The notes: generated by a model not told the origin, from the letters alone. Positions 1,051 through 60,142 are shown, numbered from the stretch's first letter. The stretch is DNA of 64,000 nucleotides from an uncultured Bacteroidota bacterium (GCA_902770735.1 CACXUB010000005.1:5639-69638); one strand, 5' to 3'. Made by a program: numbers and translations.

Positions 1051-1137
1051 GGGTTATTGGTTATCGGTTATTGAGTGTTTAGAGTTTAGAGTTTAGTGGT
1101 TTAGCGGTTTAGTAGTTAGTAGTTTATTGGTAGTAAT
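1051..1137. repeat. heptamer-period low-complexity spacer (GGGTTAT TGGTTAT CGGTTAT ... TTAGAGT TTAGAGT ... TTAGTAG TTAGTAG)
   Basis: Read directly. Lies between the regulator stop and the hydG start. Confidence 0.85.
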
Positions 1138-1211
1138 CCCCCCCTTCAGGGGGGCAGGGGGGGTCATCCTTTAGGGGGGCAGGGGGGTCATCCTTCAGGG
1201 GGGCAGGGGGG
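1138..1211. repeat. C7 tract plus three tandem ~25-bp units, each carrying two G6-7 tracts
   Basis: CCCCCCC TTCA GGGGGG CA GGGGGGG TCATCCTTTA GGGGGG CA GGGGGG TCATCCTTCA GGGGGG CA GGGGGG. G tracts at 1149-54, 1157-63, 1174-79, 1182-87, 1198-1203, 1206-11. Confidence 0.95.
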
Positions 1212-1213
1212 TA

Positions 1214-1459
1214 TCATGTTTTCGTCACCACTGCTTTTGAGGAGACACCCGGAATCTTGCCCAGCTGTCCGGAAAGGGAATTGATTTCGTTGACTTCGCC
1301 TTCGACAATAAGGGAGATGACGGCCACGGGGCGGTCGTGGAAGGGCAGGCCCTGACGCGCCAACACGATGCCGGAGTGACTGGAAATCACCTCGTTCACA
1401 TGCGCCGCCGCCGCGCGGTCTGACAATAATACCGTAATGGTGCCTATTCGCTTTTCCAT
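1214..1459 (-). CDS. TM1266-family iron-only hydrogenase system regulator (small ACT-like protein)
   Basis: 81 aa, MEKRIGTITVLLSDRAAAAHVNEVISSH...VAVISLIVEGEVNEINSLSGQLGKIPGV. Size and pattern fit the small regulator typically linked to hydE/F/G, and it lies directly upstream of hydG on the same strand. Confidence 0.65.
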   Translation of the reverse strand: MEKRIGTITVLLSDRAAAAHVNEVISSHSGIVLARQGLPFHDRPVAVISLIVEGEVNEINSLSGQLGKIPGVSSKAVVTKT

Positions 1460-1530
1460 CAGAACTTCTTTAGGATCAGGTTATTACACAAAAAGATGTC
1501 ACGCGGGTATTGTGTACCCGAATGAGCGTG

Positions 1531-1538
1531 CAAAGGTA
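1531..1538 (-). promoter_or_regulatory. -7 box TACCTTTG for the TM1266-regulator/hydG operon
   Basis: Exact match on the minus strand, 72 nt upstream of start 1459. Divergent with the 1552 box. Confidence 0.5.
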
Positions 1539-1551
1539 TCATTTTTTTGTG

Positions 1552-1559
1552 TATTTTTG
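1552..1559 (+). promoter_or_regulatory. -7 box TATTTTTG (Bacteroidota TAnnTTTG) for 1600..2730
   Basis: Exact TAnnTTTG match, 41 nt upstream of the ATG. Confidence 0.6.
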
Positions 1560-1599
1560 CAGCTTCAAAAAAATTACTGTTTTCTGTTAAAAAAGAGAC

Positions 1600-2730
1600 A
1601 TGCAAAAATATATAAGGTACTGTGTATCAATATTGTTGATGAGTGTATGCTTGTCTCTTTCGGCGCAGAAATCGGTTTCGGATTATCAGGAACTTTACTC
1701 TGAGGCGGAGATTTTGGCTAACAGCGCCATTTACGATGTCGCGAGACAATATTATATTGATGCCTTCCGGGCTGTGCCCTCTGGACGGAATGCGCGTGAG
1801 GTGAAATACAAAATCAAGCAGAAAGCTTTGAAAATGGAATGCTACATGCGTTTCTATCACCTTATGGATCAGGCGAATACTCTGGAACAAATGCACGACT
1901 TCGAAAGCGCCCAGAAATACTTCGCGGACGCATTGCAGTATGTGGAGGATGAGTCTCTCATTATTCCGGGAATCGATTCCCTCAGGTCCCGCCTCCAAAT
2001 CATTCAGCAAACTTCCGACCTCTGCCGGAATCTCTGCCAGATTGAACTGCTGAATATGGAAGGGGATTATGATGAAGCCAGAAAACTCTATTTCCAATGG
2101 GTTGAACAGGCCGAAAGTTATGGTTACAAATGGAAAAATTATAGTTTCCCGCCTTCTTTTGTCCAAAAAGTGGATTCTATCACCGATTTTTTGTATGAAG
2201 ACCGCAATAATTCTTTGGTTTACCGCTCTATTTTCCCCGAGGAATATGTGGTGATGGACGACTACCTTTTCCAGCTTCTCAATACCACCGCCTGTCAAAA
2301 TCCACAACCCATTGAATCGGATATCACCTTTGTGGTTTCTTTGGACACGAATGGCATTGTCAAAATGTATATTGATGGTAATCAGATAGATAACGAGTTT
2401 AACTCCGCGCTTCTAAAGGATATGCAGTTGAGTATGTCGCAGCCGTATCGCTACGGGTTCTCGCTTCCTGTAAAAGAGGAACTGCATTACCACGTCTCGT
2501 CGAACAAGGTTTCGGTCTGGGTGCATAAAACCAAAACCGGATATGAGGTGAAGGATAAGGCCCTTGGCAATTTGTATGCCAAAGAGCTCCGTTCAGAGCT
2601 TTCCCCCGCCCCCGCAGGCAAATATTTATTCCAGATTCATCAAAATGTGATTGACAACCAGGCGCTGTCCACTGTCCGTCTGGCTCAAGCCAAAGGCGGC
2701 AAGGCGAAAAAGTGGCTGAAAACCAAATAA
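1600..2730 (+). CDS. hypothetical secreted protein (helical N-terminal half, beta-rich C-terminal half)
   Basis: 376-aa ORF with ATG start and signal peptide MQKYIRYCVSILLMSVCLSLSAQ. A -7 box lies 41 nt upstream. No family recognised. Confidence 0.6.
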   Translation: MQKYIRYCVSILLMSVCLSLSAQKSVSDYQELYSEAEILANSAIYDVARQYYIDAFRAVPSGRNAREVKYKIKQKALKMECYMRFYHLMDQANTLEQMHDFESAQKYFADALQYVEDESLIIPGIDSLRSRLQIIQQTSDLCRNLCQIELLNMEGDYDEARKLYFQWVEQAESYGYKWKNYSFPPSFVQKVDSITDFLYEDRNNSLVYRSIFPEEYVVMDDYLFQLLNTTACQNPQPIESDITFVVSLDTNGIVKMYIDGNQIDNEFNSALLKDMQLSMSQPYRYGFSLPVKEELHYHVSSNKVSVWVHKTKTGYEVKDKALGNLYAKELRSELSPAPAGKYLFQIHQNVIDNQALSTVRLAQAKGGKAKKWLKTK

Positions 2731-2803
2731 AATTGTATTCCTTCTACAATTTTTTTGTAACCTTTTCGTTGTTTTGCATCATATTAACATAAATAACATC
2801 ATT

Positions 2804-3685
2804 ATGAAGAAAATCTTGATCTTAAGTTTATGCGCTGTGTTATGCGCCGCTTTGATCTCCTGCGAAAAGGAGAAGCCAGGTGTTTATAACCCGAAAAAGA
2901 AAATCCAGAAGATTTATTGCGAGAATGATGGCGAAAAAGTGCTGGATCAGGTATGGAATTGGTCTGGCAAGTTGCTTAACCGTATTGATTATTATTATCA
3001 TGGAAATGTAGCTGGTTCGGACGTTTATTCGTATGATAGTAAAAACCGCATCGTGAGAATAACGAATGAAGATGAAACGCTTGATTTCGTTTACGAGAAC
3101 GATAGAATCAAAACCATCAACTATGGTTGGGCTGACGAATTGGAGGAGTCTTACAATATGATTTATGACAACGATAAGCTGTCCAAGATTGAATGGGTGG
3201 TTTATGATGGTTATATCAAAAGCGGTCACGAAAGAAAACTCAATCCGTTGGCAAGTTTGATTCCTCAAGACGGGGACGTGTTGGAAAAACAACTGCGGAA
3301 AATTCATTCGCAACAGAAATGGGAGGAAAAACTCATCCTTGAATTGACGTGGGAAGGCAAGAATGTCAGTCATATTTTTGCATACATTGAAGGTGATCCT
3401 GAAGAAACAATGGATGCCTCTTTTACTTACGATAATAAAATCAATCCGCTGAAAGGTTGGGCTTCTTTTTGGTTTGATTGTGTCATTGGGGTATGGGAAG
3501 ACGAAAATTTCTCTTATACGAACACCGGAAATGTGTTGACGGCTGTCTATAGTTATAAGGAAGCAGGGGTGGAGTTTGACTATTTTGCCACGGATTACAC
3601 TTACGAATATGACGGAAATTATCCTGTGAAGGTGACCGCCACGAACGACGGCGAACCGTATTTTACCCGCTATTACGAATATTAG
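2804..3685 (+). CDS. hypothetical lipoprotein with YD-repeat-like motifs
   Basis: Start moved to MKKILILSLCAVLCAALISC (lipobox LISC). Contains repeated Y-x-YD/ND-like segments (VYSYDSKNRIVRI, FVYENDRIKTI, MIYDNDKLSKI). Region is AT-richer than its neighbours. Confidence 0.6.
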   Translation: MKKILILSLCAVLCAALISCEKEKPGVYNPKKKIQKIYCENDGEKVLDQVWNWSGKLLNRIDYYYHGNVAGSDVYSYDSKNRIVRITNEDETLDFVYENDRIKTINYGWADELEESYNMIYDNDKLSKIEWVVYDGYIKSGHERKLNPLASLIPQDGDVLEKQLRKIHSQQKWEEKLILELTWEGKNVSHIFAYIEGDPEETMDASFTYDNKINPLKGWASFWFDCVIGVWEDENFSYTNTGNVLTAVYSYKEAGVEFDYFATDYTYEYDGNYPVKVTATNDGEPYFTRYYEY

Positions 3686-3733
3686 TCGTTGTATTAAATC
3701 AAAAAGTAACGTGATCCACAAAGCGTGCCGGAG

Positions 3734-3805
3734 GCACGAAATCTCAATAACCCCACATAAGCGTAACGAAGTGAAGCGCAGTGTGGGGTTATTGAGATTT
3801 CGTGC
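3734..3805. repeat. 24-bp perfect inverted repeat with 24-nt loop
   Basis: GCACGAAATCTCAATAACCCCACA(3734-3757) ... TGTGGGGTTATTGAGATTTCGTGC(3782-3805). Loop is TAAGCGTAACGAAGTGAAGCGCAG. Confidence 0.9.
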
Positions 3806-3881
3806 TTTCAGCACGCGCGCGACACAAAGAGCCGATGATCGGAACCTAATTCCTGCGGTTCGTTCCTAACCTAAAAATTTG

Positions 3882-4663: not shown

Positions 4664-4678
4664 TAACTTTTTCCAAGA

Positions 4679-4763
4679 GGGCTGCAAGCCCGACACGTGT
4701 CAACCCAGGGTGAACGCAGTGAACCCTGGGATAAAAAGGTGGAGCGAAGCGGAACCCTGGGTG
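4679..4763 (+). repeat. composite hairpin repeat: GGGCTGCAAGCCCGACACGTGTCAAC module plus CCCAGGG/CCCTGGG hairpin units
   Basis: The 26-nt module 4679-4704 recurs as an exact reverse complement at 59089-59114. Hairpin at 4704-4730, partial second unit at 4751-4763. Confidence 0.9.
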
Positions 4764-4797: not shown

Positions 4798-6078
4798 ATG
4801 AACCAACGAATTACAACCCCATATATCAAAAAAAACGGTCGAATGGAAGAAGCCTCATTTGAGGAGGCATTTGCGTTTGTAGCGCAGAGAATCCAGACAG
4901 CCAAACCTAACAGCACGCTGGTGATGAGCTCTGGCAGTTACTCCAACGAGACACTTTACCTGCTACAGCGGTTGGCTCGTACAACATTGAATACTAATGC
5001 TTTAGGTCCGTTTGACTACTATCGGCGCGGCACGGATTTCTTCGCCGACAAGAACGACATTCTGCCGTTCGCGGAGATGTTTTCCTCCGACAAATTCTAT
5101 TGCATGTTCCCGAATGTAGAGACCTCGGAAACGTTGAAGGCCGTTTTCGAGATCCTGAAACACTGTCCCGACACCCCGCGCTACTGGTTCAATACCCCTG
5201 ATACATTGAACATTACCGACTATTACGCCTTCTTCCGCAGCGTCAATTTCTACCTGATCCAACACCATTTGGAGAAGGGCATCTACGTGGAGGTTTTGGG
5301 TAAGAATTATGGGGCTTATAAACAGGCCTTATTGGCGGATGACTATGAAGCTCTTCTGCAAAAGAACAGCTTGCAAAACATTGATATACAGAAATTTGTT
5401 GACGATCTAATAACGGTTCACACACCCGCGTTTATTATGTGGGAGCGTTGGCTGACGGAGCAGGCCTATCACGAGTTGGAAAACCTCTGCATGTTACTCG
5501 ATGTGCAGTCGAAGCCGGCGGCGGGATTCCTCACCATCAAAAGCGAGTTGAACAGCCAGGGATTGTTCGACATGGGGATGTTCCCGCATATCGCACCGGG
5601 CGGTCACGCGCTGGACGAGACGATGCGGCAGAAGATGGAAGGCGTGTTGGGGACGGCCGTCTGTGCAGAGCCGATAGATGTACCCGCCATCCTCGACCGA
5701 GCCGGCTTCCGCAACGTCCTGCTTTGGAACGCGCTCAATGTGGAGATTTCGCAAGATATTATCAATCAATTGGATAAGGCGGATTTTTCGGTTTTGCACA
5801 CCGCTTTTATGCCCGAGAACGCCGACCTTTACAATGTGATTCTGCCCGCCAACCTTCCCGAGGAACTTTCCGGCACCTATACGGATACCTCCAAAGTGCC
5901 GCACAACTTCGTGTCTGACGTGAAAGATCCGTTGGAATACAACAACTTACAGCAAATCGCGGAATTGGCAGAACGCCTCGGACACACCTTCCCGAACGAC
6001 AAGGATGAGGTTTTCCTCGAATACATCTCCTTCATGGAAGCCGGCTGCCACAGCGCGGAACGGCATTTCTTCAAATGA
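4798..6078 (+). CDS. molybdopterin-oxidoreductase-fold protein (NuoG/FdhA-like), apparently without an Fe-S Cys motif
   Basis: N-terminus ASFEEAFAFVAQRIQTAKPNSTLVMSSGSYSNETLYLLQRLARTTLNTNAL matches the characteristic start of the molybdopterin oxidoreductase domain. I see no CxxCxxxC cluster motif. Confidence 0.55.
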   Translation: MNQRITTPYIKKNGRMEEASFEEAFAFVAQRIQTAKPNSTLVMSSGSYSNETLYLLQRLARTTLNTNALGPFDYYRRGTDFFADKNDILPFAEMFSSDKFYCMFPNVETSETLKAVFEILKHCPDTPRYWFNTPDTLNITDYYAFFRSVNFYLIQHHLEKGIYVEVLGKNYGAYKQALLADDYEALLQKNSLQNIDIQKFVDDLITVHTPAFIMWERWLTEQAYHELENLCMLLDVQSKPAAGFLTIKSELNSQGLFDMGMFPHIAPGGHALDETMRQKMEGVLGTAVCAEPIDVPAILDRAGFRNVLLWNALNVEISQDIINQLDKADFSVLHTAFMPENADLYNVILPANLPEELSGTYTDTSKVPHNFVSDVKDPLEYNNLQQIAELAERLGHTFPNDKDEVFLEYISFMEAGCHSAERHFFK

Positions 6079-6170
6079 GGACTTGAGACTTAGGAGTTGA
6101 GATTTGAGACTTAGGACTTGAGACTTGAGACTTAAGGTTGAAGTCTTGTTAAAGTCTTAAGTCTTACGTC
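6079..6170 (+). repeat. ~13 tandem heptamers GACTTGA/GACTTAG/GAGTTGA/GACTTAA directly after a stop codon
   Basis: Read directly. Begins 1 nt after TGA 6076-6078. Confidence 0.9.
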
Positions 6171-6175
6171 TTTTT
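6129..6175 (+). terminator. hairpin plus T-run after 4798..6078
   Basis: GACTTAAG(6129-6136)/CTTAAGTC(6156-6163), then a TTTTT run at 6171-6175. Built from heptamer repeat units. Confidence 0.45.
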
Positions 6176-6209
6176 GGTGTTGTGCTGAAAGCTGTAAACC
6201 AAAAAATAC

Positions 6210-6217
6210 TATCTTTG
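6210..6217 (+). promoter_or_regulatory. -7 box TATCTTTG for valS
   Basis: Exact match, 65 nt upstream of ATG 6282. Confidence 0.6.
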
Positions 6218-6281
6218 CCGTTTGTTTCCCTAAGTGGAATGATTCACCTATTTTGTTAATTTACAAACGATTATAAAGATT

Positions 6282-8922: not shown

Positions 8923-9093
8923 ATGAAAGCGGTTCTGCGTTATTTCATACTTTTGGCTGCGTTGCTGATACCTTTCACGTTCTCCAGCGTGAAGCAGCGT
9001 TTCCCGATACTGGTGGGCATCACGCTCGGCGTGACGCTCGCCTACTGGGGGATGTACTTTTGGATGAAGAAGAAAGGGAAAACGAAGGAATAG
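8923..9093 (+). CDS. candidate small membrane protein (56 aa, two hydrophobic helices)
   Basis: Below the track cutoff. ATG lies 1 nt after the valS stop. My translation is MKAVLRYFILLAALLIPFTFSSVKQRFPILVGITLGVTLAYWGMYFWMKKKGKTKE, followed by the terminator hairpin at 9123. Confidence 0.35.
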   Translation: MKAVLRYFILLAALLIPFTFSSVKQRFPILVGITLGVTLAYWGMYFWMKKKGKTKE

Positions 9094-9122
9094 GAAGGCA
9101 TCTGAGTCCTCCCAAATGTGCC

Positions 9123-9160
9123 GTAGAGACGCAGTCATTGCGTCTCTACTTTTGTTTTTT
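9123..9160. terminator. bidirectional intrinsic terminator between the valS/small ORF and the convergent sugar porter
   Basis: Perfect 11-bp stem GTAGAGACGCA(9123-9133)/TGCGTCTCTAC(9139-9149) with a 5-nt loop, followed by TTTTGTTTTTT. Confidence 0.7.
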
Positions 9161-12763: not shown

Positions 12764-13111
12764 ATGGATTTCAAGAGCACACAAACCATATACCGGCAGA
12801 TCGAGAACTGGGTGTTCGAGCAAATCTTGTCGGGCGCATGGAAGCCGGGCGAGCGGGCCAAGTCGGTGCGCGAGTTGGCTGTCGCCTTCGAGGTGAACCC
12901 CAACACCGTCATGCGCTCCTACGAACGTCTTCAGAACCAGGAGATCATCACCAACAAACGCGGCATCGGCTTCTTCGTCAACGAAGACGCCCCCGAGAAA
13001 ATCCACGCCATCCGGAAGAAGGAATTCATGGAGGAGGAGGTGCCGGAGTTTCTGAAGAATATGCGGTTGCTGGGAATCACGATGGAGGAAATCATGGCAG
13101 TTAGTAATTAG
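12764..13111 (+). CDS. GntR family transcriptional regulator, YtrA subfamily
   Basis: 115 aa. wHTH IYRQIENWVFEQILSGAWKPGERAKSVRELAVAFEVNPNTVMRSYERLQNQEIITNKRGIGFFV with a short C-terminal helical tail typical of YtrA. Confidence 0.85.
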   Translation: MDFKSTQTIYRQIENWVFEQILSGAWKPGERAKSVRELAVAFEVNPNTVMRSYERLQNQEIITNKRGIGFFVNEDAPEKIHAIRKKEFMEEEVPEFLKNMRLLGITMEEIMAVSN

Positions 13112-13135
13112 TAATTAGTAGTTAGTAGTTGAGTC
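13101..13135 (+). repeat. tandem heptamers TTAGTAA x2, TTAGTAG x2, overlapping the GntR stop codon
   Basis: Read directly. The stop TAG at 13109-13111 lies inside the array. Confidence 0.9.
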
Positions 13136-13160
13136 GCGATTTAGCTGCTAACTACTAACT
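13120..13160 (+). terminator. hairpin after the GntR gene
   Basis: 11-bp perfect stem AGTTAGTAGTT(13120-13130)/AACTACTAACT(13150-13160). No clear U-run. Confidence 0.45.
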
Positions 13161-15473: not shown

Positions 15474-15492
15474 TTGAAAACATAAAAAATAC

Positions 15493-36295: not shown

Positions 36296-36465
36296 TATTA
36301 TATATTTGAATGCTAATGTAATAAAGACCATACAAGATTTGCAAGATTAGGGTAAAGAATAGTTTGTGAAAATAAGGTGTTTAGCGTCCACGGCTTCCTC
36401 CAACGCGAGGTGCGGGAAATGAAACAGCTGGCAGCGGAAAGACAATAGTGCACCGTCCCTCCGAA

Positions 36466-36498
36466 ACTACCAACTACTAACTACTAACTACTAACTCC
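36466..36498 (-). repeat. tandem heptamers (minus strand TTAGTAG x3, TTGGTAG) directly after the GT9 stop
   Basis: Plus strand reads ACTACCA ACTACTA ACTACTA ACTACTA ACTCC. The stop (cta) is at 36499-36501. Confidence 0.9.
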
Positions 36499-38671: not shown

Positions 38672-38683
38672 TCAATTCGGCGG

Positions 38684-38691: not shown

Positions 38692-38721
38692 CAATTTTTT
38701 AGGCAATAGGCAACAGCCCTG
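38692..38721. repeat. heptamer spacer TAGGCAA TAGGCAA CAGCCCT between the trkH stop and the next promoter
   Basis: Near-identical to 43774-43799 (TAGGCAA CAGGCAA TAGCC). Both follow a CAAAGATAC(A/T)ATTTTT promoter segment. Confidence 0.8.
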
Positions 38722-43737: not shown

Positions 43738-43765
43738 ATAAATTTCGTCAGTTTTAAAATGGCGG

Positions 43766-43773: not shown

Positions 43774-43799
43774 CTATTTTTAGGCAACAGGCAATAGCC
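43774..43799. repeat. heptamer spacer TAGGCAA CAGGCAA TAGCC between the SDR-gene stop and the mutS2 promoter
   Basis: Read directly. Paralogous to 38692-38721. Confidence 0.8.
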
Positions 43800-44596: not shown

Positions 44597-44669
44597 CTTT
44601 TGGCTTTAAACTGCCAGCTAAAAGCTAATAGCCAACAGCTAATAGCCAATAGCCGACAGCCAACAGCTA
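44597..44669 (-). repeat. ~10 tandem heptamers (minus strand TAGCTGT TGGCTGT CGGCTAT TGGCTAT TAGCTGT ...) directly after the sufS stop
   Basis: Read directly. Confidence 0.9.
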
Positions 44670-45872: not shown

Positions 45873-45895
45873 GATGAAAGTTTAGGGTTTATGGT

Positions 45896-46372
45896 TTATA
45901 GTTTAGTGTTTTGTTCGTCGGTGGGTTGCATGAAGCGTAATTGGGTGGCGTACATCAGGACCCAGAGGATGGACATGAGTATTCCGCTGAAGTTCATGGC
46001 CACGATGCCTCCGATGACGAAGTTCATCACGCAGAATTCCAGGATTTTACCGATGGTATAGACGTGGAAACCGGCCTTGTTGAGCTTCGCCAGCATAAGG
46101 AACGCGCCAACGAAAAGCATGACTTGCACGGCGGCCAGCAGCAGATATTGCCAACTGTTGATGGAGGTGTAGAGTTCCAGGATTTTTTCTGTCTGTTCCG
46201 CGGGAAAAAGCCCCATAGTCTTGACGGTTTCCATGGATTTCAGCATGTAGTCTGCGGCGAATGCCCAGCAAAGGTAGGCAATGGCCGAAAAGGCGGAGTT
46301 GAGCATCGTGATGATGCCTAAAATCCAAAGTATCGGTGTTCGTTTCGGGGTAATGTCTTCGGGATTATTCAT
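45896..46372 (-). CDS. hypothetical membrane protein (4 TM helices)
   Basis: 158 aa with hydrophobic helices. Overlaps the tilS stop by 8 nt, suggesting an operon. Confidence 0.6.
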   Translation of the reverse strand: MNNPEDITPKRTPILWILGIITMLNSAFSAIAYLCWAFAADYMLKSMETVKTMGLFPAEQTEKILELYTSINSWQYLLLAAVQVMLFVGAFLMLAKLNKAGFHVYTIGKILEFCVMNFVIGGIVAMNFSGILMSILWVLMYATQLRFMQPTDEQNTKL

Positions 46373-47711: not shown

Positions 47712-48683
47712 CTATTGGAATTCCGTTCGAATTTTGAAATATCGGCGTATTTCCATCTTCATGTATTCGTAAGATCCGAAATTGACGGCTCTCGGGACTT
47801 CGTTTTTGCGCATCATCACCATGCCGGAACCCGCAGGGTCGATATAAGGGGTGATATCGGTTTCTATGGCGAAAGTCAGTTCGTAGTTGCGCACGGTCAC
47901 GCGATTGAAATTGTCGTTGACCTCTTCGTAAAGGATGCCGTTTTCCTCACAGAAAGCTTGCAGATCCGGGGCGGTCTCGTCCCACATTTCGGGCTTGTCG
48001 TTCGGGTTGAAGTAGAAAACGACCGCGTTGTAGTCGGGCAGGGTGTCCACCGTTTCGGCAATTTCAAAACGACCTTGGTCGTTGATGAGGAATTGCTCCA
48101 CCTGTTTCGATGCGCGATGGTATTTTTCGGGATTCTTGAGATAGTCTTGCTTGGTGGCATTCGTCATGGAGTTTGTCCACTCATACTCTTTCGTGGTGCG
48201 GAATTGCCCGTCAGAGAGTCGCAGCGTCCGCCACGTCTCGGTTTCCAGCACATCACCTTGCAGATGGGAGAAGCTGATGGCTACCGGAAGCACGTCGAGG
48301 ATGCGCTGGGTGCCGTAACCGGAGGTGGTGACGAGGTACATCCATTCGCGGTTTTCCGATTGCAGTAGCCAAAGTTCGCGTCCTTCCGGCAACCTTTCCA
48401 CGCATTCCACGCCCCATTCTTGTGGAAAATTGACTCTTGCAGTCCACTTTTTACCCTGGAAGGCGTTCGCTTTTTCCAAAAAAGAAGCTAAAACCTCCTC
48501 CTGCAACGGGTAGAGGGTCTTTGTGCTGTTCACATCGGCGGTCAACGTGTCTCGGATGACCTCCATGGGATATACCACGGGTTCATCGATGTTACCTGTT
48601 GAATCGTCTTTCTTTGATTTACAGTTAGTTAAAAGAAACGCCAATACGAAACACAGGCAAAAGGTTATATGGTTTCGGTTCAT
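47712..48683 (-). CDS. hypothetical lipoprotein
   Basis: Lipobox FLLTNC. 323 aa. ATGA overlap with folP, plus its own -7 box embedded in the folP 3' end. Confidence 0.6.
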   Translation of the reverse strand: MNRNHITFCLCFVLAFLLTNCKSKKDDSTGNIDEPVVYPMEVIRDTLTADVNSTKTLYPLQEEVLASFLEKANAFQGKKWTARVNFPQEWGVECVERLPEGRELWLLQSENREWMYLVTTSGYGTQRILDVLPVAISFSHLQGDVLETETWRTLRLSDGQFRTTKEYEWTNSMTNATKQDYLKNPEKYHRASKQVEQFLINDQGRFEIAETVDTLPDYNAVVFYFNPNDKPEMWDETAPDLQAFCEENGILYEEVNDNFNRVTVRNYELTFAIETDITPYIDPAGSGMVMMRKNEVPRAVNFGSYEYMKMEIRRYFKIRTEFQ

Positions 48684-49504
48684 ATTGAATTTTTCGGCAA
48701 AGATACGATTTTTCGTACTTCGGAGGCTTCTTTCACGTCGTGGACGCGCAGGATGGATGCGCCTTTCATGAGGGCGATGGTGTTGAGGACGGTGGTGCCG
48801 TTGAGGGCGTGTTCGGGAGTTGTTTTCAACAGCTTGTAAATCATGGATTTACGGGAAATTCCTACCAATAACGGATACCCCAACTCCAAGAACACTTCCA
48901 GATTATTCATCAGGAAATAGTTCTGTTCCAATGTTTTACCGAATCCGAAACCTGGGTCGAGGATGATGTCATGGACACTGTTCTCGTGCAGAATTTCAAG
49001 CTGTCTTCCGAAGAACTGCAACATCTCTCCGAGGATGTCTTGATAGTCGGTATATTGCTGCATGACAGACGGTTTCGCGGTCGTGTGCATCAGACAGTAG
49101 GGTACTTGCAATTTGCCCACGGTGGGGATCATCTCTGGATCGAAGGTGCCGCCGGAGATGTCATTGATCATGTCGGCACCGGCCTCCACGGCGGCTTCGG
49201 CCACGGCAGCGCGATAGGTGTCGATGGAGAGGACAGCCTCGGGAAACTCTTCGCGGAGGAGTCGCACGGCACGGACGATTCTCGTAATCTCCTCGTTTTC
49301 AGGAATTTCTTGTGCATCCGGTCGGGTGGACATAGCCCCGATGTCGATGATGTCACCTCCTTCGTTCAGAATCTGTGCGGCGCGTTTCAGAATGGCCGCA
49401 TCCGACACGTAGCGTCCCCCGTCATAGAAGGAGTCTTCTGTGACATTCAAAATGCCCATGATCAGGGGTGTGCTTGCGGATAGTTTTCCGTTAAACTTGT
49501 ACAT
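48680..49504 (-). CDS. folP: dihydropteroate synthase
   Basis: IMGILNVTEDSFYDGG, IIDIGAMSTRP, SIDTY, MINDISGG, GISRKS. Confidence 0.92.
   Translation of the reverse strand: MYKFNGKLSASTPLIMGILNVTEDSFYDGGRYVSDAAILKRAAQILNEGGDIIDIGAMSTRPDAQEIPENEEITRIVRAVRLLREEFPEAVLSIDTYRAAVAEAAVEAGADMINDISGGTFDPEMIPTVGKLQVPYCLMHTTAKPSVMQQYTDYQDILGEMLQFFGRQLEILHENSVHDIILDPGFGFGKTLEQNYFLMNNLEVFLELGYPLLVGISRKSMIYKLLKTTPEHALNGTTVLNTIALMKGASILRVHDVKEASEVRKIVSLPKNSI
48698..48705 (-). promoter_or_regulatory. -7 box TATCTTTG inside the folP 3' end, for lipoprotein gene 47712..48683
   Basis: Exact match on the minus strand, 15 nt upstream of ATG 48683. Lies within the last folP codons (..KIVSLPKNSI). Confidence 0.5.
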
Positions 49505-49570
49505 TTTGGTTATTTGCTTTTGGCCATTAGCTTTTGGCTAACAGCTAATAGCTAATGGCCAAAGGCTAAT
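49505..49570. repeat. heptamer array (TTTTGGC CATTAGC TTTTGGC TAACAGC TAATAGC TAATGGC CAAAGGC) containing a 13-bp perfect hairpin
   Basis: Stem 49519-49531 / 49551-49563. Confidence 0.9.
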
Positions 49571-49575
49571 AACAA

Positions 49576-49605
49576 ACAAGGGACGATCTTCCGACCATCC
49601 CTTGT
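49576..49605 (-). terminator. hairpin after T9SS cargo gene 49635..50933
   Basis: ACAAGGGA(49576-49583)/TCCCTTGT(49598-49605), an 8-bp perfect stem 30 nt after the stop on the minus strand. Confidence 0.5.
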
Positions 49606-51416: not shown

Positions 51417-53294
51417 ATGTCAGAGATTATCGAAAACAAACCCAGAAGAAAAAGAGTGGTTAGAGGAGGTGAAGGCTTGATGGCCACCTCGAACGAGACG
51501 AAGATGAAGGGTAAGATCAGAGTGGCCGAAAAGGTTGCCACGCCGTTGTTCAACCTCGTCAAGGCGGAGGCTCCTGAACAGAAGCCGGAAATTGTTGAAA
51601 TCACCCCGGAAGAAAAATTCCCGCAAATGGCAAATCCGCTTCCCGTGACAGAGAAGCCCCGGAGAGGCCGGCGCCCCAAGGCAAAACCTCTTCCAGAGCC
51701 TGTTTCGAGCATCGAAGAGACTCCCGTCCCGGAACCGACTCCCGCCCCCGCCCCGGAAAAGAAACGTCGCGGCCGCCCGAAAAAAAATCCCGTCGTGACG
51801 GAAGAACCCCCCGTGGAGGAAGTGGTGGAAGAACTTATGCCCGGCCTGTTCACCGATGAGGAACTGGGCAGGACCACCCCGAAAACCGAAGAAGAGAAAG
51901 TCCCGGTTGTCGATGTCGAGGAGGTGAAAACGACCCCCGAAGCAGCAACGGCCCCCGAAACGCCCGAGGAGAAACCCGAAAAACCTCGTCGCGGCCGCCC
52001 GAAGAAAAAAAATACCGAGACCCCTGCTGAAAACAAGGAGGAAAAACCCGGACGTAAGAAAAAAGGAGCTGGAAAGGAGCAAGCCGACGCGCCCCAAGGC
52101 ACGACTTACACAAATCCTGACACTGCCGAAACGAAAGCGGAGGAAGAGCAGGTCCCCTATCTTGCCAATGCGCAGTACGACGGCTCTGTCATGGCCGAGG
52201 GCGTGCTCGAAATCACCAGCGAAAACTGCGGTTTCCTGCGTTCTTCCGACTATAACTACCTCTCCTCTCCCGATGACATTTACGTTTCCATGTCGCAGAT
52301 AAAGCTCTTCGGCCTCAAGAACGGCGACACGGTCTATGGTGCCATCCGCCCGCCCAAACCCGGCGAGAAATATTTCCCGCTGACGAAAATCGACCGGATC
52401 AACGGCTGCCTTCCCGAGGAAATCCGCGACCGTATCCCGTTCGACTACCTCACTCCGATGTTCCCGGACGAGAAGATAAACATCACCGGTCATCCCGGCT
52501 GCAAGCTCTCCACCCGTATCATTGACCTTTTCGCCCCCATCGGCAAAGGTCAGCGCGGATTGATCGTGGCTCAGCCGAAAACTGGTAAAACAGTGTTGCT
52601 CAAAGACATAGCAAACGCCATCGCCTACAATCATCCTGAAATTTACCTCATCATCCTGCTCATCGACGAACGTCCCGAAGAGGTCACCGACATGCAGCGC
52701 AGTGTGAATGCCGAGGTGATTTCCTCCACATTCGACGAACCGGCGGAGCGTCACGTCAAGATTGCCAACATGGTGCTTGACAAGGCGAAACGCATGGTGG
52801 AGTGCGGTCACGATGTCTGCATTTTGCTCGACTCCATCACCCGTTTGGCCCGTGCGTTCAACACCATGGCGCCCGCATCCGGAAAGGTGCTTTCCGGCGG
52901 TGTGGAGGCCAATGCCCTGCAAAAGCCCAAACGCTTCTTCGGCGCGGCCCGTAACGTGGAGAACGGCGGTTCCCTGACCATCATCTCCACCGCCTTGATT
53001 GACACGGGTTCCCGCATGGACGAGGTGATCTTCGAGGAATTCAAAGGAACCGGCAACATGGAGTTGCAGCTCGACCGCAAGCTCTCCAACAAGCGCATCT
53101 ACCCGGCTGTCGATATCGTGGCTTCTAGCACTCGCCGCGACGACCTGCTCCAGGATGCCGCCACGCTGCAGAAAGTTTGGATTCTCCGTAACCATATCGC
53201 CGATATGACGACAATCGAAGCGATGAACCTGATTATCAGCAATATGGAGGATACCAAGAACAATGAAGAGTTCCTCAACTCTATGAACGGTTAG
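51417..53294 (+). CDS. rho: transcription termination factor Rho with ~230-aa disordered, AT-hook-like N-terminal region
   Basis: Core: [28 protein letters not shown] (RNA-binding), Walker [30 protein letters not shown]-terminal low-complexity region with [26 protein letters not shown]. Confidence 0.95.
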
Positions 53295-53327: not shown

Positions 53328-54602
53328 ATGAAAAAGGCAATATTCGCCATAGCCGTGTTCGTATGTTTCGCTTTGACCCTCAAGGCGGACACGTTCACGG
53401 CTTTTTTCACGAAAGAGCGTTACACGCAGTATTTGCTTGACACCATTGGGGACCGCTATGACGTTGAGGGACTGGAGTTTGTGGCCAATGACATGTCGGA
53501 TAAATTGAACGGCATCTTGTTGGTGGCGGTGCGCGACACGGTGTTGGTGGAACATGCCTACGGGGAACTGCGCCTGACTGGCGAACCGCCCCATCGCGAT
53601 GTGCCCGAAAACAACCGCATTACGGAAACCTCCCTCTTTGACCTGGCGTCCATCTCCAAGCAGTTTACCGCCGTGTCGGTGCTGCAGCTTTGCGCGCAAG
53701 GGAAAATCAGTCTCGATGACACGATTACGAAATATTTTCCGAACCTTCCCTACCAAGGGGTGAGTATCAGGAATTTACTGACCCATACAACCGGAATCCC
53801 CGAATATTTCAAGTTCAAATACACGGTTTACGGTTCCGTGGCGTTTGTGGATAATGAACTGCTTTTGCGCGTGCTGGAAAAGCAGAAGTACGCCAAAACC
53901 TTCCAGACAGGCACTAAATTCGAATATGTGAACACCAATTACGCGATTTTGGCGGCATTGGTGGCGAAAGTTTCTGGAATGCCGTTTGAGGAGTACGTGC
54001 ATGAGCACCTTTTCAAGCCTGCCGGTATGGAGAATACCTGTTTTTTCACGGAAATTGTGGGAATTGATGCCAAACATGGCAGGAAATATGCCAATGTCGA
54101 TCCGAAAGCGGAGGATGTGAGTGTTCAGCCGTTGCCTTGGGGAGTGACTATTGCCCGGGGACATCGAAAAGTGGCCGTCACAGCCAAATTCGACAGGCTC
54201 AACGGCGTGCTCGGCGACAAGGGTGTCTATTCCAATGCAGAAGATATGCTTCGCTGGGCCAACGCTCTCTTCATGGACTACAAAATCTTGCCGAAGGAGT
54301 GGGTGGATTCCGCTTCGACCCGCGAAAACCAGCTGAACGACGGTTCTTTGCCCAAAAGCATATACGGCTTCGGCTTTCGTATCGAGGAGAGCCCCACTCA
54401 TGGGAAACTGGTCTATCACGGCGGCCTTTGGAACGGATTCCAGAATCTGTTTCTCTATCGCCCGTCCGACAACGCGGTGATCGTTTTCCTCAGCAATCTC
54501 TATAACAAAGCCCATGCCGGCCGCAGCGACCAAATGCTCAATATTCTCGATGGAATTTATGAGGAAGTGACGGAAGAGGATGAAGAGACTATTAGTTATT
54601 AG
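53328..54602 (+). CDS. serine hydrolase, beta-lactamase (class C/AmpH-like) family
   Basis: SxxK motif LASISKQFTA and a YxN-type motif (YVNTNY). Signal peptide MKKAIFAIAVFVCFALTLKA. Start set to ATG 53328. Confidence 0.85.
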   Translation: MKKAIFAIAVFVCFALTLKADTFTAFFTKERYTQYLLDTIGDRYDVEGLEFVANDMSDKLNGILLVAVRDTVLVEHAYGELRLTGEPPHRDVPENNRITETSLFDLASISKQFTAVSVLQLCAQGKISLDDTITKYFPNLPYQGVSIRNLLTHTTGIPEYFKFKYTVYGSVAFVDNELLLRVLEKQKYAKTFQTGTKFEYVNTNYAILAALVAKVSGMPFEEYVHEHLFKPAGMENTCFFTEIVGIDAKHGRKYANVDPKAEDVSVQPLPWGVTIARGHRKVAVTAKFDRLNGVLGDKGVYSNAEDMLRWANALFMDYKILPKEWVDSASTRENQLNDGSLPKSIYGFGFRIEESPTHGKLVYHGGLWNGFQNLFLYRPSDNAVIVFLSNLYNKAHAGRSDQMLNILDGIYEEVTEEDEETISY

Positions 54603-54712
54603 CTATTGCTGTGACTTAGTATGGACTTAGACTTAAGACTTAAGACTTAAGACTTAGACATAGACTTAAACTTAGACTTAGACTTAGACATAGACTTAAA
54701 CTTAGACTATTG
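54591..54712 (+). repeat. ~17 heptamer-period units (ATTAGTT ATTAGCT ... TTAAGAC x3 ...), including a 30-bp duplication, overlapping the stop codon
   Basis: GACTTAGACATAGACTTAAACTTAGACT occurs at both 54651-54678 and 54681-54708. The stop TAG is at 54600-54602. Confidence 0.9.
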
Positions 54713-54771
54713 TCTGCTCACTAATCACATAAACAAAAGATTTTCTAACCATTAACCTATTAACCCATTAA

Positions 54772-55611
54772 ATGACCTATTATCCCGCAAACTATCATAC
54801 CCATTGCCTCTATTGTGACGGAAAGAGCACATTGGAAGAACATGTTCGGGAAGCGGAAAAACAGGGACTTTTGCAGCTCGGTTTTTCCTCGCATGCACCC
54901 GTGCCGTTCGAGAACAAATTCGCCATCTCGGAGGAGGATTTGCCCGAATATATACGGGAAATCGATCGCTTGAAGTCCCAAACAGACGTCTGCCTGCTGA
55001 AAGCCTTGGAATGCGACTTTATTCCCGGGATGACGGTGGATTTTGCGGACAGAAAGTCGGTCAACGGTCTTGACTACGTTATTGGAGGGGTGCATTTGGT
55101 ACGGCCCCCGCACGGTGACGGCCTTTGGTTCATCGACGGTCCCAAGCAGGAAATTTACGACAACGGCCTGCGGGAGCTGTTCGACAACAATGTCAAGTTG
55201 GCGGTCACCACGTTTTGGGAACAGACCTTCGAGATGCTCGAAACGCAGAAAATGGACATCATCGCCCATTTTGACAAAATCAAGATGCACAACCGCAATC
55301 GTTTTTTCACCGAGGATGAAAGTTGGTATAAAATACTGGCTGACAAAGCAATACGGTTGATCAAACGCCACGATGTGATTGTCGAGGTGAACACGCGCGG
55401 GTTGTACAAAAAGCGCAGCGACAGTTTCTATCCTTCCACGGAGTTGTTGATGAAAGCCCGCAAGGCGGATATTCCGGTGTTGATCAGCAGCGATGCGCAT
55501 CAAGCGGAGGAACTCACCCTCTTCATGCCCGAGGCGGCCGCGGAATTGCAGCGCTGCGGTTATGACCACACCGCGTGGTTCGATGTCGAAAAGGGGCGGT
55601 TTGTGTATTAG
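54772..55611 (+). CDS. histidinol-phosphatase, PHP family (HisJ/HisK type)
   Basis: N-terminal metal motif YHTHCLYCDG, GFSSHAP, GGVHLV, IAHFDKIK, SSDAH. Confidence 0.8.
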   Translation: MTYYPANYHTHCLYCDGKSTLEEHVREAEKQGLLQLGFSSHAPVPFENKFAISEEDLPEYIREIDRLKSQTDVCLLKALECDFIPGMTVDFADRKSVNGLDYVIGGVHLVRPPHGDGLWFIDGPKQEIYDNGLRELFDNNVKLAVTTFWEQTFEMLETQKMDIIAHFDKIKMHNRNRFFTEDESWYKILADKAIRLIKRHDVIVEVNTRGLYKKRSDSFYPSTELLMKARKADIPVLISSDAHQAEELTLFMPEAAAELQRCGYDHTAWFDVEKGRFVY

Positions 55612-55636
55612 CTGTTAGCTTTTGGCTTTTTCTTGT
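55609..55636 (+). repeat. heptamers TAGCTGT TAGCTTT TGGCTTT TTCTTGT starting at the stop codon
   Basis: Read directly. The stop TAG is at 55609-55611. Confidence 0.8.
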
Positions 55637-55670: not shown

Positions 55671-56351
55671 ATGGAAAACAAGGCCGGACAATTTTTGGAA
55701 CGATACCGCGAGATTGAGGAATGGGTGCTCAACAATCTGAATATCACTGAGATGAAGGATTTAGAGCAGATGCCGAAGTACAAAAGCATTCGCAGTAACC
55801 TGGCTTTTTGCAGGATGTTGCGCAATTTGTTGTCGCATTATGACTGGTCGAAGGCGGGCAACGACATGATCATCGTCACGGACCAAGCGATTCGGCAGGT
55901 CAACAACCTCTACTATTCGCTCAATCCGATGACGCTGATGCGCGTGGCCATCCGTGCGGGGCAGATTTTCGCTCCCTCGCCCGAAGATTCGGTGCTCGCC
56001 GCCGTGAAGGTGATGCAGCGCAACGACTATTCCTACATTCCCGTTGTGGAAAACCATCGGATTGTCGGGGTGTTCAGCACCAAGACCATCATGCGTTTGG
56101 TGGCGGAGAATAACGGAGTTAATATTTCGGAAACACTGAAATTCAAAGAGATAGCCGACCTTATCCAGTTGAAAGACGAGTCGAACGCCCACTACGGCTT
56201 CATAAACCCGAATATGACGGTGGAAGACATCAGCCTCAAGTTCCAGCGGTCGAAAACGCGCAGAATGCGTCTCGACATGCTGTTCATCACCGATAATGGC
56301 CGTTCGGACGGGTTGTTGCAAGGGATGGTAACGCCCGTGGACCTTTTGTAG
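55671..56351 (+). CDS. CBS-pair protein with N-terminal helical RNxxxH (HEPN-like) domain
   Basis: Start set to MENKAGQ (ATG 55671, 19 nt after the -7 box). N-terminal LAFCRMLRNLLSHY. Two CBS motifs (AVKVMQRNDYSYIPVVENHRIVGVFS; MLFITDNGRSDGLLQGMVTPVDLL). Confidence 0.75.
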   Translation: MENKAGQFLERYREIEEWVLNNLNITEMKDLEQMPKYKSIRSNLAFCRMLRNLLSHYDWSKAGNDMIIVTDQAIRQVNNLYYSLNPMTLMRVAIRAGQIFAPSPEDSVLAAVKVMQRNDYSYIPVVENHRIVGVFSTKTIMRLVAENNGVNISETLKFKEIADLIQLKDESNAHYGFINPNMTVEDISLKFQRSKTRRMRLDMLFITDNGRSDGLLQGMVTPVDLL

Positions 56352-56383
56352 TTAGTAGTTAGCAGTTAGTAGTTAGCAGTTTA
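56349..56383. repeat. heptamers TAGTTAG TAGTTAG CAGTTAG TAGTTAG CAGTTTA filling the whole spacer between convergent genes
   Basis: Runs from the stop TAG (56349-56351) of the CBS gene to the stop (tta 56381-56383) of queD. Confidence 0.9.
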
Positions 56384-58972: not shown

Positions 58973-58984
58973 AGTTGGTTTTTG

Positions 58985-59114
58985 ATCATAGGGTTGCCGC
59001 CCTGGATCATAGGGCTATCGCCCTATGTTGACACGAATCATAGGGCTATCGCCCTGAGTTGACATAAATCATAGGGCTATCGCCCTATGTTGACACGTGT
59101 CGGGCTTGCAGCCC
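58985..59114 (-). repeat. 3.5 tandem ~31-bp units (ATCATAGGGCTATCGCCCTATGTTGACACGA) ending in the GTTGACACGTGTCGGGCTTGCAGCCC module
   Basis: Each unit contains the hairpin TAGGGC-TATC-GCCCTA. The terminal 26 nt are the exact reverse complement of 4679-4704. Confidence 0.9.
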
Positions 59115-59137
59115 TTTTGGAATAAGTTTTATTAGAA

Positions 59138-59407
59138 TTAGAAATAGTGTTCCGCCACTTGGAAAATCACCTTTTCGTCGGGTTCGTACAGCCCTTTTTC
59201 ATTAGTGAGGATGAAATCGGCGATATTGTGCCGGCGGTATCCTTCTGGAATCTTGCTCGGGCTGTCGAGGATGATGTCGAAGGTTTCAGGATGGATGCCC
59301 ACTTCCAAATCGGTGGCGTAGCTGGTGAAATGGTGCAAAAAATCGTCAACTTTATCCACTAAAGCGTTGCCGAGGGCTCCGGCTGTCTTTATTTTCTGTT
59401 CGTTCAT
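59138..59407 (-). CDS. hypothetical small protein
   Basis: 89 aa, ATG start, -7 box 23 nt upstream. No family recognised. Confidence 0.5.
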   Translation of the reverse strand: MNEQKIKTAGALGNALVDKVDDFLHHFTSYATDLEVGIHPETFDIILDSPSKIPEGYRRHNIADFILTNEKGLYEPDEKVIFQVAEHYF

Positions 59408-59429
59408 ACTTTATATATTTTTCAGGGCG

Positions 59430-59437
59430 CAAAGATA
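59430..59437 (-). promoter_or_regulatory. -7 box TATCTTTG for 59138..59407
   Basis: Exact match on the minus strand, 23 nt upstream of the start. Confidence 0.6.
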
Positions 59438-59480
59438 CTATTTTTCAAGGCGTGCAATGCCGGCATGTTCTAAAAAAAAT

Positions 59481-59488
59481 TATCTTTG
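59481..59488 (+). promoter_or_regulatory. -7 box TATCTTTG for sodB
   Basis: Exact match, 34 nt upstream of ATG 59522. Confidence 0.65.
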
Positions 59489-59521
59489 CCAAACTGTTTT
59501 TCATCCAAAAAACTTTGCAAT

Positions 59522-60103
59522 ATGGGAAAATTTGAATTGATTACGCTGCCTTATGCGGCAAACGCCTTGGAACCGGTGATTTCGGAACAAACTATCGGCT
59601 TTCACCACGGCAAACATCTGCAAGGATATGTCAACAACCTGAATGCGGCCGTCGAAGGCACACCGTTCGCGGACAAGGATTTGGTGGAGATCGTGAAGAC
59701 GGCCTACGGCGGGATGCTCAACAACGCCGGCCAGATTCTGAACCACAACCTCTATTTCCAGCAATTCCGCAGTCCGCTGGCCGACAACAAACCCACGGGT
59801 GCGCTTGCGGAAGCCATCGACGCGCAGTTCGGCTCTTTCGAGGAGTTCCAGAAGGTGTTCGTGCAGGCGGGCGCCACGCTGTTCGGCTCCGGCTGGGTGT
59901 GGCTCTCCGCCGACGCTGACGGCAAGTTGGTGATCACACAGGAGACCAACGCGGCCAACCCAGTACAGAAGGGACTTTGTCCGCTGCTGACCTTCGATGT
60001 GTGGGAACACGCCTACTATCTGGATTACCAGAACCGCCGTCCCGACCACCTCAACGCGTTGTGGCAGATCGTGGACTGGAATGTGGTGGCAGGAAGGTTT
60101 TAG
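59522..60103 (+). CDS. sodB: Fe/Mn superoxide dismutase
   Basis: LPYAANALEPVISEQTIGFHHGKHLQGYVNNLN, DVWEHAYYLDYQNRRPD. Start set to ATG 59522, 34 nt after the -7 box. Confidence 0.93.
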   Translation: MGKFELITLPYAANALEPVISEQTIGFHHGKHLQGYVNNLNAAVEGTPFADKDLVEIVKTAYGGMLNNAGQILNHNLYFQQFRSPLADNKPTGALAEAIDAQFGSFEEFQKVFVQAGATLFGSGWVWLSADADGKLVITQETNAANPVQKGLCPLLTFDVWEHAYYLDYQNRRPDHLNALWQIVDWNVVAGRF

Positions 60104-60142
60104 CTTTTAGCTTTTAGCTGTTGGCTGTTGGCTGTTGGCTGA
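60101..60142. repeat. heptamers TAGCTTT x2, TAGCTGT, TGGCTGT x2, TGGCTGA filling the whole spacer between convergent genes
   Basis: Runs from the sodB stop TAG (60101-60103) to the stop of the DRWG gene (60143-60145). Confidence 0.9.

Follow-up and report, generated by a model that had tools for sequence, protein, structure and literature searches.

Tandem heptanucleotide arrays beside stop codons in an uncultured gut Bacteroidales genome

The window analyzed here, a stretch of 64,000 nucleotides from an uncultured Bacteroidota bacterium (GCA_902770735.1 CACXUB010000005.1:5639-69638), carries at 13 intergenic loci tandem arrays of degenerate 7-nt units, and 10 or 11 of these loci adjoin or overlap a stop codon. 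An earlier examination of this DNA from its letters alone (the sequence-only reading) had proposed 12 or more such loci at stops; the placement holds, the count is slightly lower. Genes were mapped with a codon-usage caller and checked against independent gene calls and Pfam matches on contigs carrying the same proteins. A map based on the longest open reading frames (ORFs) was rejected because it is misleading at the 50% G+C of this genome, with miscalls such as a shadow ORF of ValRS and 218-1096(+), which is a shadow ORF in the codon-usage map. Exact copies of window proteins were found in several gut-metagenome assemblies, and the nearest species representatives are Bacteroidales metagenome-assembled genomes (MAGs) with a ValRS identity of 72-83%. 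Arrays were detected with Tandem Repeats Finder and with a separate lag detector, both run on the window.

On the plus strand, the array at 6079..6133 begins 1 nt past a TGA stop (6076-6078) and holds about eight GACTTGA/GACTTAG units (Tandem Repeats Finder, 6080-6133, 7.7 copies). It is followed at 6137..6177 (+) by three inverted copies, AAGTCTT, which pair with the direct array and run into TTTTT (Tandem Repeats Finder, 6152-6172); the roughly 13 units previously read at 6079-6170 are in reality about eight direct and about three inverted ones. At 13099..13160 (+), about five AGTTAGT/AATTAGT units (Tandem Repeats Finder, 13099-13130) cover the last three codons and the TAG stop of a GntR-family gene, encoding the terminal 'VSN*' of its product, and an inverted copy is found at 13142-13160. 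The array at 54589..54712 (+) covers a TAG stop (54600-54602), starting with 2.7 copies of CTATTAG (Tandem Repeats Finder, 54589-54607) and continuing as a mixture of GACTTAA (7 nt) and GACTTA (6 nt). The segment 54591-54712 had been described as a period-7 array, which is correct in part, 54624-54708 being mostly period-6 GACTTA mixed with 7-nt units. Also on this strand, RGCTNTT units at 55609..55636 (three in the window) cover the TAG stop of a PHP-domain gene (55611).

On the minus strand, 4.6 copies of AGTTAGT at 36465..36498 (Tandem Repeats Finder, 36465-36496) adjoin the TAG stop (36499) of a GT9 glycosyltransferase gene in a convergent spacer. At 38692..38721 (-), the three units GGCTGTT GCCTATT GCCTAAA are placed between the stop of TrkH (38722) and the promoter-like TATCTTTG box that precedes the following gene, and at 43774..43799 (-) the units GGCTATT GCCTGTT GCCTAAA extend from an SDR stop (43800) to the next promoter-like box. 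These two arrays and the one at 55609 are present as had been claimed, but with only about three degenerate units each, below the threshold of Tandem Repeats Finder. About nine RGCTNTT units, mutually pairing, fill the spacer at 44597..44669 (-) between the stop of a SufS-like gene (44670) and an SDR start (44588) (Tandem Repeats Finder, 44615-44667). A further array, missed before, lies at 45880..45911 (-), where 4.6 copies of CTAAACN on the minus strand (Tandem Repeats Finder) cover the stop of the gene 45896..46372 and end 7 nt ahead of the ATG of the SufS-like gene (45872).

Two arrays, assigned to neither strand, fill complete spacers between convergent genes, as the sequence-only reading had seen at 56349 and 60101 and the gene map bears out. 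The one at 56348..56383 (AGTTAGT/AGTTAGC, 4.9 copies; Tandem Repeats Finder, 56348-56381) takes up the entire 29-nt spacer and provides both stops, TAG on the plus and TAA on the minus strand. The other, at 60098..60142, consists of TTTTAGC x3 and TGTTGGC x3.6 (Tandem Repeats Finder, 60098-60141) and separates a superoxide-dismutase gene (stop 60103) from the convergent gene 60143..60592(-).

Two further arrays had been listed as gene-end arrays and lie at starts. At 1051..1137 (-), between two minus-strand genes, about six CTAAACN and three AATAACC units on the sense strand (Tandem Repeats Finder, 1052-1131) end 9 nt ahead of the start (1042) of a radical-SAM gene. At 49505..49576 (-), RGCTNTT units form a palindrome of two arms that are 85% complementary (Tandem Repeats Finder, 49537-49571), adjoining the start (49504) of the gene 48680..49504 and lying 65 nt from the upstream stop (49635); a separate G+C-rich hairpin lies between the array and that stop. 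In addition, a period-8 array, TAACC(N)AT x3, is found at 54746..54771 (+) and ends at the ATG at 54772 (Tandem Repeats Finder). Set against phase-variable contingency loci, in which the repeat tract lies within a promoter spacer or the 5' coding region such that a change in units switches expression, most arrays are 3' of genes; those at 38692 and 43774 end beside the promoter-like box, and the pre-start arrays at 1077 (within 1051..1137), 45880 and 54746 lie in leaders. An Rfam search and a tRNA gene search gave no match at any window array.

The period of seven is specific. In the 5.6 kb of intergenic DNA of the window the lag detector found 11 period-7 arrays, against a mean of 0.015 in 200 dinucleotide-preserving shuffles, which rules out a chance origin; each of the other periods from 4 to 12 gave 0 or 1 array. 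A simple lag detector applied to the window returned seven strong period-7 arrays and none of period 4, 5 or 8-13. Identity at lags 7, 14 and 21 is elevated in the intergenic DNA of the window only, and in the first 60 nt past its stops it reaches 0.384 at lag 7 and 0.349 at lag 14, neighboring lags being about 0.27. Past the stops of other loci the lag-7 value is 0.305 versus about 0.29 for the lags around it, and no lag-7 bump was found upstream of starts. With head-to-tail 7-nt units in at least three copies, far above chance, the arrays belong to the heptanucleotide long simple-sequence repeats. The observation made in the sequence-only reading is partly confirmed, the arrays and their period standing and several locus details being wrong.

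For comparison, 160 other loci were collected, 80 around ValRS in species-representative genomes, mostly Bacteroidota, and 80 around the SufS-like gene from metagenomes, giving 2.4 Mb together with the window. Seven is the most frequent tandem period in this set, which is mostly Bacteroidota. Period-7 arrays are excluded from coding DNA (10 in 2.16 Mb) and concentrated in intergenic DNA (57 in 0.22 Mb), where co-directional spacers hold 39 in 139 kb, convergent spacers 13 in 29 kb and divergent spacers five in 55 kb. Counted as spacers holding an array, 11 are convergent and five divergent, with densities of 0.38 and 0.09 per kb; the difference has p=0.007 when assessed by length and p=0.07 in a Fisher test of regions, and periods 8-10 show no such convergent-over-divergent excess. 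Within co-directional spacers, 19 of the 39 arrays lie at most 5 nt from the upstream stop, where uniform placement would give 7.4, and only five lie at most 5 nt from the start. These figures, along with the lag-7 bump found past stops only, uphold the proposed tie between the arrays and gene 3' ends.

Arrays starting at the ValRS stop are found, for example, in Bacteroides intestinalis (L039), an Alistipes (L052) and a Tidjanibacter MAG (L063), among others. In these three the C-terminal length of ValRS is unchanged, and the last one or two poorly conserved codons plus the stop make up the first unit of the array. Since ValRS keeps its usual length and its stop falls within the first unit, the array sets in exactly where the constraint on the protein ends. 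The window genome is an array-rich instance of a widespread habit. As a separate observation, a 56-codon ORF (MKAVLRYFILLAALLIPFTFSSVKQRFPILVGITLGVTLAYWGMYFWMKKKGKTKE, 8923-9093, +) starts 2 nt past the ValRS stop of the window and is not in public gene calls; small hydrophobic ORFs like it also follow ValRS in five comparison loci (L003, L004, L005, L007 and L009).

The arrays also obey a strand rule. Post-stop arrays have more G than C on the sense strand in 18 of 22 cases, many of them being C-free, whereas pre-start arrays have more C than G in 8 of 9 (Mann-Whitney p=5e-4). Replication strand was ruled out as the cause of this asymmetry, the orientation tracking the adjacent gene on both strands. 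Moreover, a G-type array at the stop is accompanied by its complement at the start side, or nearby as a hairpin, in L039, L052, L063, L069, L093 and L136, and the window loci that combine an array with a complementary copy are 6079, 13101 (the 13099 array) and 49505.

About four unit families recur in the window, contrary to the earlier statement that the unit differs from locus to locus: AGTTAGT (13101, 36466, 56349 and part of 1110), GTTTAGN, which is CTAAACN on the other strand (1077, 45880), GACTTRA (6079, 54624) and RGCTNTT (44597, 49505, 55609, 60101), with GCCTNTT at 38692 and 43774. A repeat search of the window found no conserved flanks between same-family arrays beyond the units themselves and a generic promoter-like box, AAAAATACTATCTTTGCCGCC, in keeping with the earlier view that a single mobile element did not give rise to them. 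A motif AAAAATA(C)TATCTTTGCCGCC recurs 15-70 nt upstream of start codons (6201-6220, 15484-15503, 38679-38700, 43761-43782, 48693, 50980, 59425, 59472, 60577 and 63863) and is the sole sequence common to the flanks of the 38692 and 43774 arrays; we take it to fit the Bacteroidota -7 promoter box TAnnTTTG.

Contigs from other samples, 96-99% identical to the window, reveal how the arrays change. Between such closely related strains the arrays gain and lose whole 7-nt units, as expected of slipped strands. The convergent PTPS/CBS spacer at 56349 measures 15, 22 or 29 nt, corresponding to 2, 3 or 4 units, and the array past the PHP-domain gene at 55609 has three units in the window, six in L174, about six in L175 and 11 in L182. 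The pre-start array at 1077 is two units shorter (minus 14 nt) in L185 and L186; at 6079, L185 lacks one of the direct units and has an additional inverted one, and the period-8 array at 54746 has one unit fewer in L175. L173 is identical to the window over 10 kb save for the 54624-54708 array and one 30-nt indel, and the 54589..54712 array differs in L175 too. The exception is the 13101 locus, whose array and hairpin are the same in all of eight samples, unlike at other loci; L171 carries a variant. The gene-end spacers are among the fastest-changing DNA between these strains, which bears on strain typing, contig breaks and gene-end calls. Short metagenome contigs were also seen to end within heptamer arrays or within a C-rich repeat (L171, L177 and L187); these repeats break short-read assemblies, and copy numbers derived from assemblies therefore need caution.

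Over longer times the unit drifts or is replaced while the array persists at the same spacer. For example, at the 6079 spacer L187 has GGGTTAA x3 past a TAA stop, where the window has GACTTGA past TGA; the L187 segment is probably a tract recombined from a more distant lineage, because its adjoining 200 nt are only 87.5% identical to the window. In L005, whose ValRS is 81% identical, the spacer that precedes this gene is filled by an array of AGTTGAG units. In these orthologous spacers, period and position stay constant while the unit varies, as the sequence-only reading had held. On either side of the SufS-like gene, where protein identity is down to 88-90%, the arrays are missing or have given way to a plain hairpin or to a related unit in a period-8 array: the 44597 array is absent in L083, L084 having two unrelated units there, and the 45880 array corresponds to a period-8 CTAACCCA array in L083 and to none in L084.

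The reading that we favor, with a probability of roughly 0.6, is that the arrays are slippage-driven heptanucleotide microsatellites filtered by the tolerance of the DNA beside stops and starts. Changes in unit number would arise by strand slippage, and the preference for seven would be a property of the mutational process. Only sites that tolerate extra DNA would retain arrays; in these compact genomes such sites would be found mainly just past a stop, bounded by coding sequence on one side and by the promoter and leader of the next gene on the other. An array touching or overlapping a stop would have to carry a stop triplet; its sense strand would hence be C-poor (A/G/T) and, 7 and 3 having no common factor, each reading frame would meet a stop every 21 nt. 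Just upstream of starts, it is the same units turned around (A/C/T, G-poor) that would be tolerated, Bacteroidota leaders being A-rich. Arrays with inverted copies would form long hairpins, which in a minority of cases may contribute to termination or to the stability of the RNA, as a side effect and not the cause of the pattern.

Several observations weigh against this reading. Tandem duplication does not move an array, and abutment on the stop would therefore require that the array was seeded on the stop codon or that the DNA in between was deleted afterwards. Unit pairs at most one mismatch apart make up 23-33% within a genome versus 6.9% between genomes; purely local, independent slippage does not predict such recurring families, which need ectopic conversion, a narrow space of tolerated sequences or a trans-acting factor. 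That diverged lineages have independent arrays, with unlike units, in one and the same spacer would be compatible with selection for an array there as well. Finally, the 13101 array and its hairpin lie in a 212-nt stretch free of mismatches against a strain that is 93.5% identical elsewhere, an invariance that hints at constraint or at a recombination tract.

The arrays could instead be selected 3'-end modules, acting as frame-independent back-up stops and/or as terminators or insulators, with the pattern kept and the sequence free, which we consider unlikely. Such modules would be enriched past stops and adjoin them, as the arrays do, and sense-strand stop triplets occupy 12.3% of array positions versus 5.1% of other intergenic DNA (2.4 times), with stops in all three frames at 9 of the 13 window loci. 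The stops in every frame that had been reported are present at these nine loci and the density is high, but they call for no selection, because any 7-nt unit with one stop triplet automatically gives each frame one stop per 21 nt; likewise, arrays overlapping the stop of a gene hold a stop triplet by construction. Given the composition of the units (permuted bases), 35 of 52 contain a stop versus 28.6 expected, a modest excess that leaves only a weak enrichment beyond composition, and a hand tally of non-overlapping arrays gives a similarly modest 14 of 20 versus 9.3. In diverged lineages the unit at the same spacer does carry the stop of its own gene (TGA with GACTTGA, TAA with GGGTTAA). However, an in-frame back-up stop recurs only every seven codons (21 nt), a poor design for tandem stops, and the GGGAATC heptamer of Xanthomonas follows the same positional rules although, by our reading of the unit, it has no stop triplet (PMC4692102). 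The frame-independent stop buffer under selection that had been suggested is not needed to explain the data.

Regarding termination, each post-stop region of the 13 loci was folded, and significant hairpins were obtained at four: 6079 (z -2.8), 13101 (z -5.6), 44597 (z -6.8) and 49505 (z -8.6). The hairpins announced at three loci are accordingly there, at 6079-6172, 13099-13160 and 49505-49576. Only one array locus, where the 6079-6177 hairpin is followed by TTTTT, resembles an intrinsic terminator, a G+C-rich hairpin with a U-run; the other three, including the strong hairpin at 13101, have no such run. No significant fold was found at the remaining 9 of 13 loci, including 36466, 38692, 43774, 45880, 54591, 55609, 56349 and 60101, and 12 of 13 lack a T-run. 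Also, the arrays at 44597, 45880 and, upstream of ValRS, in L005 fill spacers that are apparently intra-operon and leave no room for a promoter or a terminator, whereas a pattern scan places canonical hairpin-plus-T terminators elsewhere in the window, at 9123-9149 and 18448-18482. The variation from 2 to 11 units among strains and the absence of arrays in the closest relatives argue against any dependence on length. The conserved 13101 locus speaks for selected modules, as do the four strong hairpins, one with its T-run. A minority of the loci may act as terminators, but a general role of this kind is not supported, given the 4 of 13 folds, the single T-run, the intra-operon arrays and the shrinkage of one spacer to 15 nt.

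A different form of selection, which we regard as quite unlikely, would make the arrays hypermutable intercistronic or 3'-untranslated elements. Their copy number would set how much read-through occurs, how fast an mRNA decays or how a leader works, perhaps by way of a factor recognizing the heptamers specific to each genome. If this were true, the strand rule common to Bacteroidota, Xanthomonas and cyanobacteria would reflect a conserved, undescribed mechanism and not tolerance.

It is conceivable, though again quite unlikely, that a lineage-specific protein uses the arrays as platforms with many binding sites, either on DNA or on the transcript, and that the preferred heptamer co-evolves with this protein in each genome. 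Genome-specific families do occur at unlinked loci, with four in the window, GAATTGA at five arrays in L063, and TAATGAC x4 and TCCAAAT x3 in L093, and the orientation follows the gene and not the replication strand. By our reading of the sequences the post-stop families of the window have a TTRG core in common, and binders of the S1, Csp or CsrA-like type have been proposed for the TAACTGA repeats (MacGregor 2015, PMC4679880). Against this, one genome holds several families unrelated to each other, unit numbers are very unstable, close relatives lack arrays at the corresponding loci, and no candidate protein is linked to the arrays within the 64 kb.

The least probable explanation derives the arrays, as ends or remnants, from a dispersed mobile element targeting gene ends, such as a miniature inverted-repeat transposable element (MITE), a repetitive extragenic palindromic (REP)-like element or transposon footprints with 7-bp target duplications. 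Unit families do recur within genomes, and Tidjanibacter L063 has GAATTGA arrays at two separate genes that are both followed by the 28-nt GGCAAATGCGAGTAAGCGAGAGCAGAGG and share internal segments, with inverted arrays bracketing the spacer. However, same-family window arrays share no flank beyond the generic promoter box, no terminal inverted repeats, target duplications or transposase genes lie near the window arrays, and strain differences are pure gains and losses of units. A MITE or REP-like element in the window was ruled out on the ground that its same-family arrays share repeat units only. The L063 loci lie at 3117-3380 and 9020-9625; besides the 28 nt behind the two GAATTGA arrays, which adjoin the stops of two different genes, they share a second segment, GCCGAGCGRGAGCATTTTAGA, and complementary TCAATTC/CAATTTT arrays stand just before the next starts. 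The arrangement resembles a composite dispersed element with inverted heptamer arrays at both of its sides.

Of what the sequence-only reading had concluded, the 3'-end association and the non-mobile nature of the arrays survive, and a general stop-buffer or terminator function and the novelty do not.

Other repeats and features were noted in the window. At 1143-1212, a 24-nt repeat (CCTTCAGGGGGGCAGGGGGGTCAT, 2.9 copies) adjoins the stop (1214) of a minus-strand TM1266-like gene; its sense strand has C6 tracts ending in a CCCCCC-TGAA-GGGGGGG hairpin, its plus strand could form a G-quadruplex, and variant copies occur in L185 and L186. A 31-nt repeat (ATCATAGGGCTATCGCCCTATGTTGACACG x3) lies in a divergent spacer at 59006-59128, where the Rfam family Acido-Lenti-1 barely reaches its gathering score at 59070-59115 (37.1, gathering 37); with a 49-nt, 90% complementary copy at 4665-4713, it may represent a small dispersed element or a small RNA family. 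Just past the gene 2774-3685(+), a 35-nt inverted repeat (3723-3816, 91% complementary, 24 nt between the arms) forms a long hairpin that has no relation to the heptamer arrays. In the spacer between 31081-32202(-) and 32546-35611(+), a repeat of period 10/20, rich in T (TTTATTCTTC, 4.9 copies; Tandem Repeats Finder), occupies 32202-32260, and the 32-36 kb region flanking it has a lower G+C of 0.37-0.40. The minus-strand gene 60143-60592, without a Pfam match in public calls, contains at 60189-60505 a 54-nt (18-codon) periodic repeat of at least four copies. At 51843/51844, L173 carries 30 extra nt within the N-terminal part of Rho (gene 51417-53294), which may be an in-frame length polymorphism of that region; close by, a 35-nt sequence is directly repeated at 51753 and 51975. 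Finally, two assembly contigs are joined in the window at 11377/11378, within an ABC-transporter-like gene: L002 ends at 11377, and the scaffold L001 has 73 additional positions there (10 N + 63 nt). ORF 10984-11751 is probably an artefact of this join, which is 73 positions longer in L001.

With respect to known systems, the arrays recall intrinsic terminators in lying just past stops, and the 6079-6177 array with its inverted copies forms a hairpin followed by TTTTT; most window arrays differ from them as direct repeats without a stable hairpin or T-run. The closer relatives are bacterial microsatellites. According to Mrazek 2007, as reported in later papers, heptanucleotides are the most abundant long simple-sequence repeats (5-11 nt) in most prokaryotes, and repeats whose period is not a multiple of three are excluded from coding regions (PMC4679880, PMC4692102); a slippage origin was proposed, about 7 nt being the length that interacts with the polymerase (cited in PMC4679880).

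A first case is that of stop-containing heptamers. TAACTGA repeats are described in the intergenic DNA of marine Beggiatoaceae, cyanobacteria and five Bacteroidetes, with other heptamers alongside, and their all-frame stops are considered to limit overlap with coding sequence (MacGregor 2015, PMC4679880). Like the arrays described here they are tandem, intergenic and stop-containing, with two stop triplets in TAACTGA. However, they lie mostly a few nt upstream of starts in forward orientation, whereas the window arrays are mostly at stops, and one dominant unit is found there against several families here. TAACTGA occurs in the window as three single copies, never in tandem.

A second case is that of heterocystous cyanobacteria, whose short tandemly repeated repetitive (STRR) heptanucleotides, reportedly described by Mazel et al. 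in 1990, are said to comprise several tandem families per genome, dispersed in intergenic DNA. The window arrays likewise form several tandem heptamer families in intergenic DNA, in a different phylum, and the STRR units CCCCAGT, TTGGTCA and CAACAGT are not in tandem here. Heptanucleotides of Calothrix PCC 7601 are also mentioned in PMC4692102.

The closest match is with the GGGAATC repeats of Xanthomonas and the GGGGA(T/C)T repeats of Nostoc PCC 7120, intergenic arrays of 2 to >20 heterogeneous heptameric units (Rehm 2015, PMC4692102). These are found mainly between co-oriented ORFs and rarely between divergent ones, with the sense strand at most 50 bp from a stop or overlapping it and the antisense strand upstream of ORFs; about 70 form inverted pairs, and most are transcribed (PMC4692102). 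The period of seven, the intergenic position, the range of unit numbers and the heterogeneous units, the preference for spacers of co-oriented ORFs, the sense placement at stops and antisense placement at starts, the rarity between divergent genes and the inverted pairs are all found in the arrays described here. The differences lie in the units and in the host: no heptamer array of the window has recurring GGG or CCC runs and GGGAATC is never in tandem, so that the units here lack G-tracts and G-quadruplex potential; a stop triplet, absent from GGGAATC, is present in most of the units here; one genome holds several families; and the host is an uncultured gut Bacteroidales bacterium. Membership in the TAACTGA, STRR or G-quadruplex heptamer families was ruled out, those units being never in tandem here.

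The organization had been thought undescribed. Its positional rules are in fact already given in PMC4692102, and stop-containing TAACTGA repeats, Bacteroidetes included, in PMC4679880, although our literature search found no description specific to gut Bacteroidales. The arrays are therefore an already described kind of bacterial microsatellite, the new elements being the unit sequences and the host. The positional and strand rules of Xanthomonas and Nostoc hold in gut Bacteroidales with quite different, stop-containing units, and a common cause behind these shared rules is therefore worth an experimental test.

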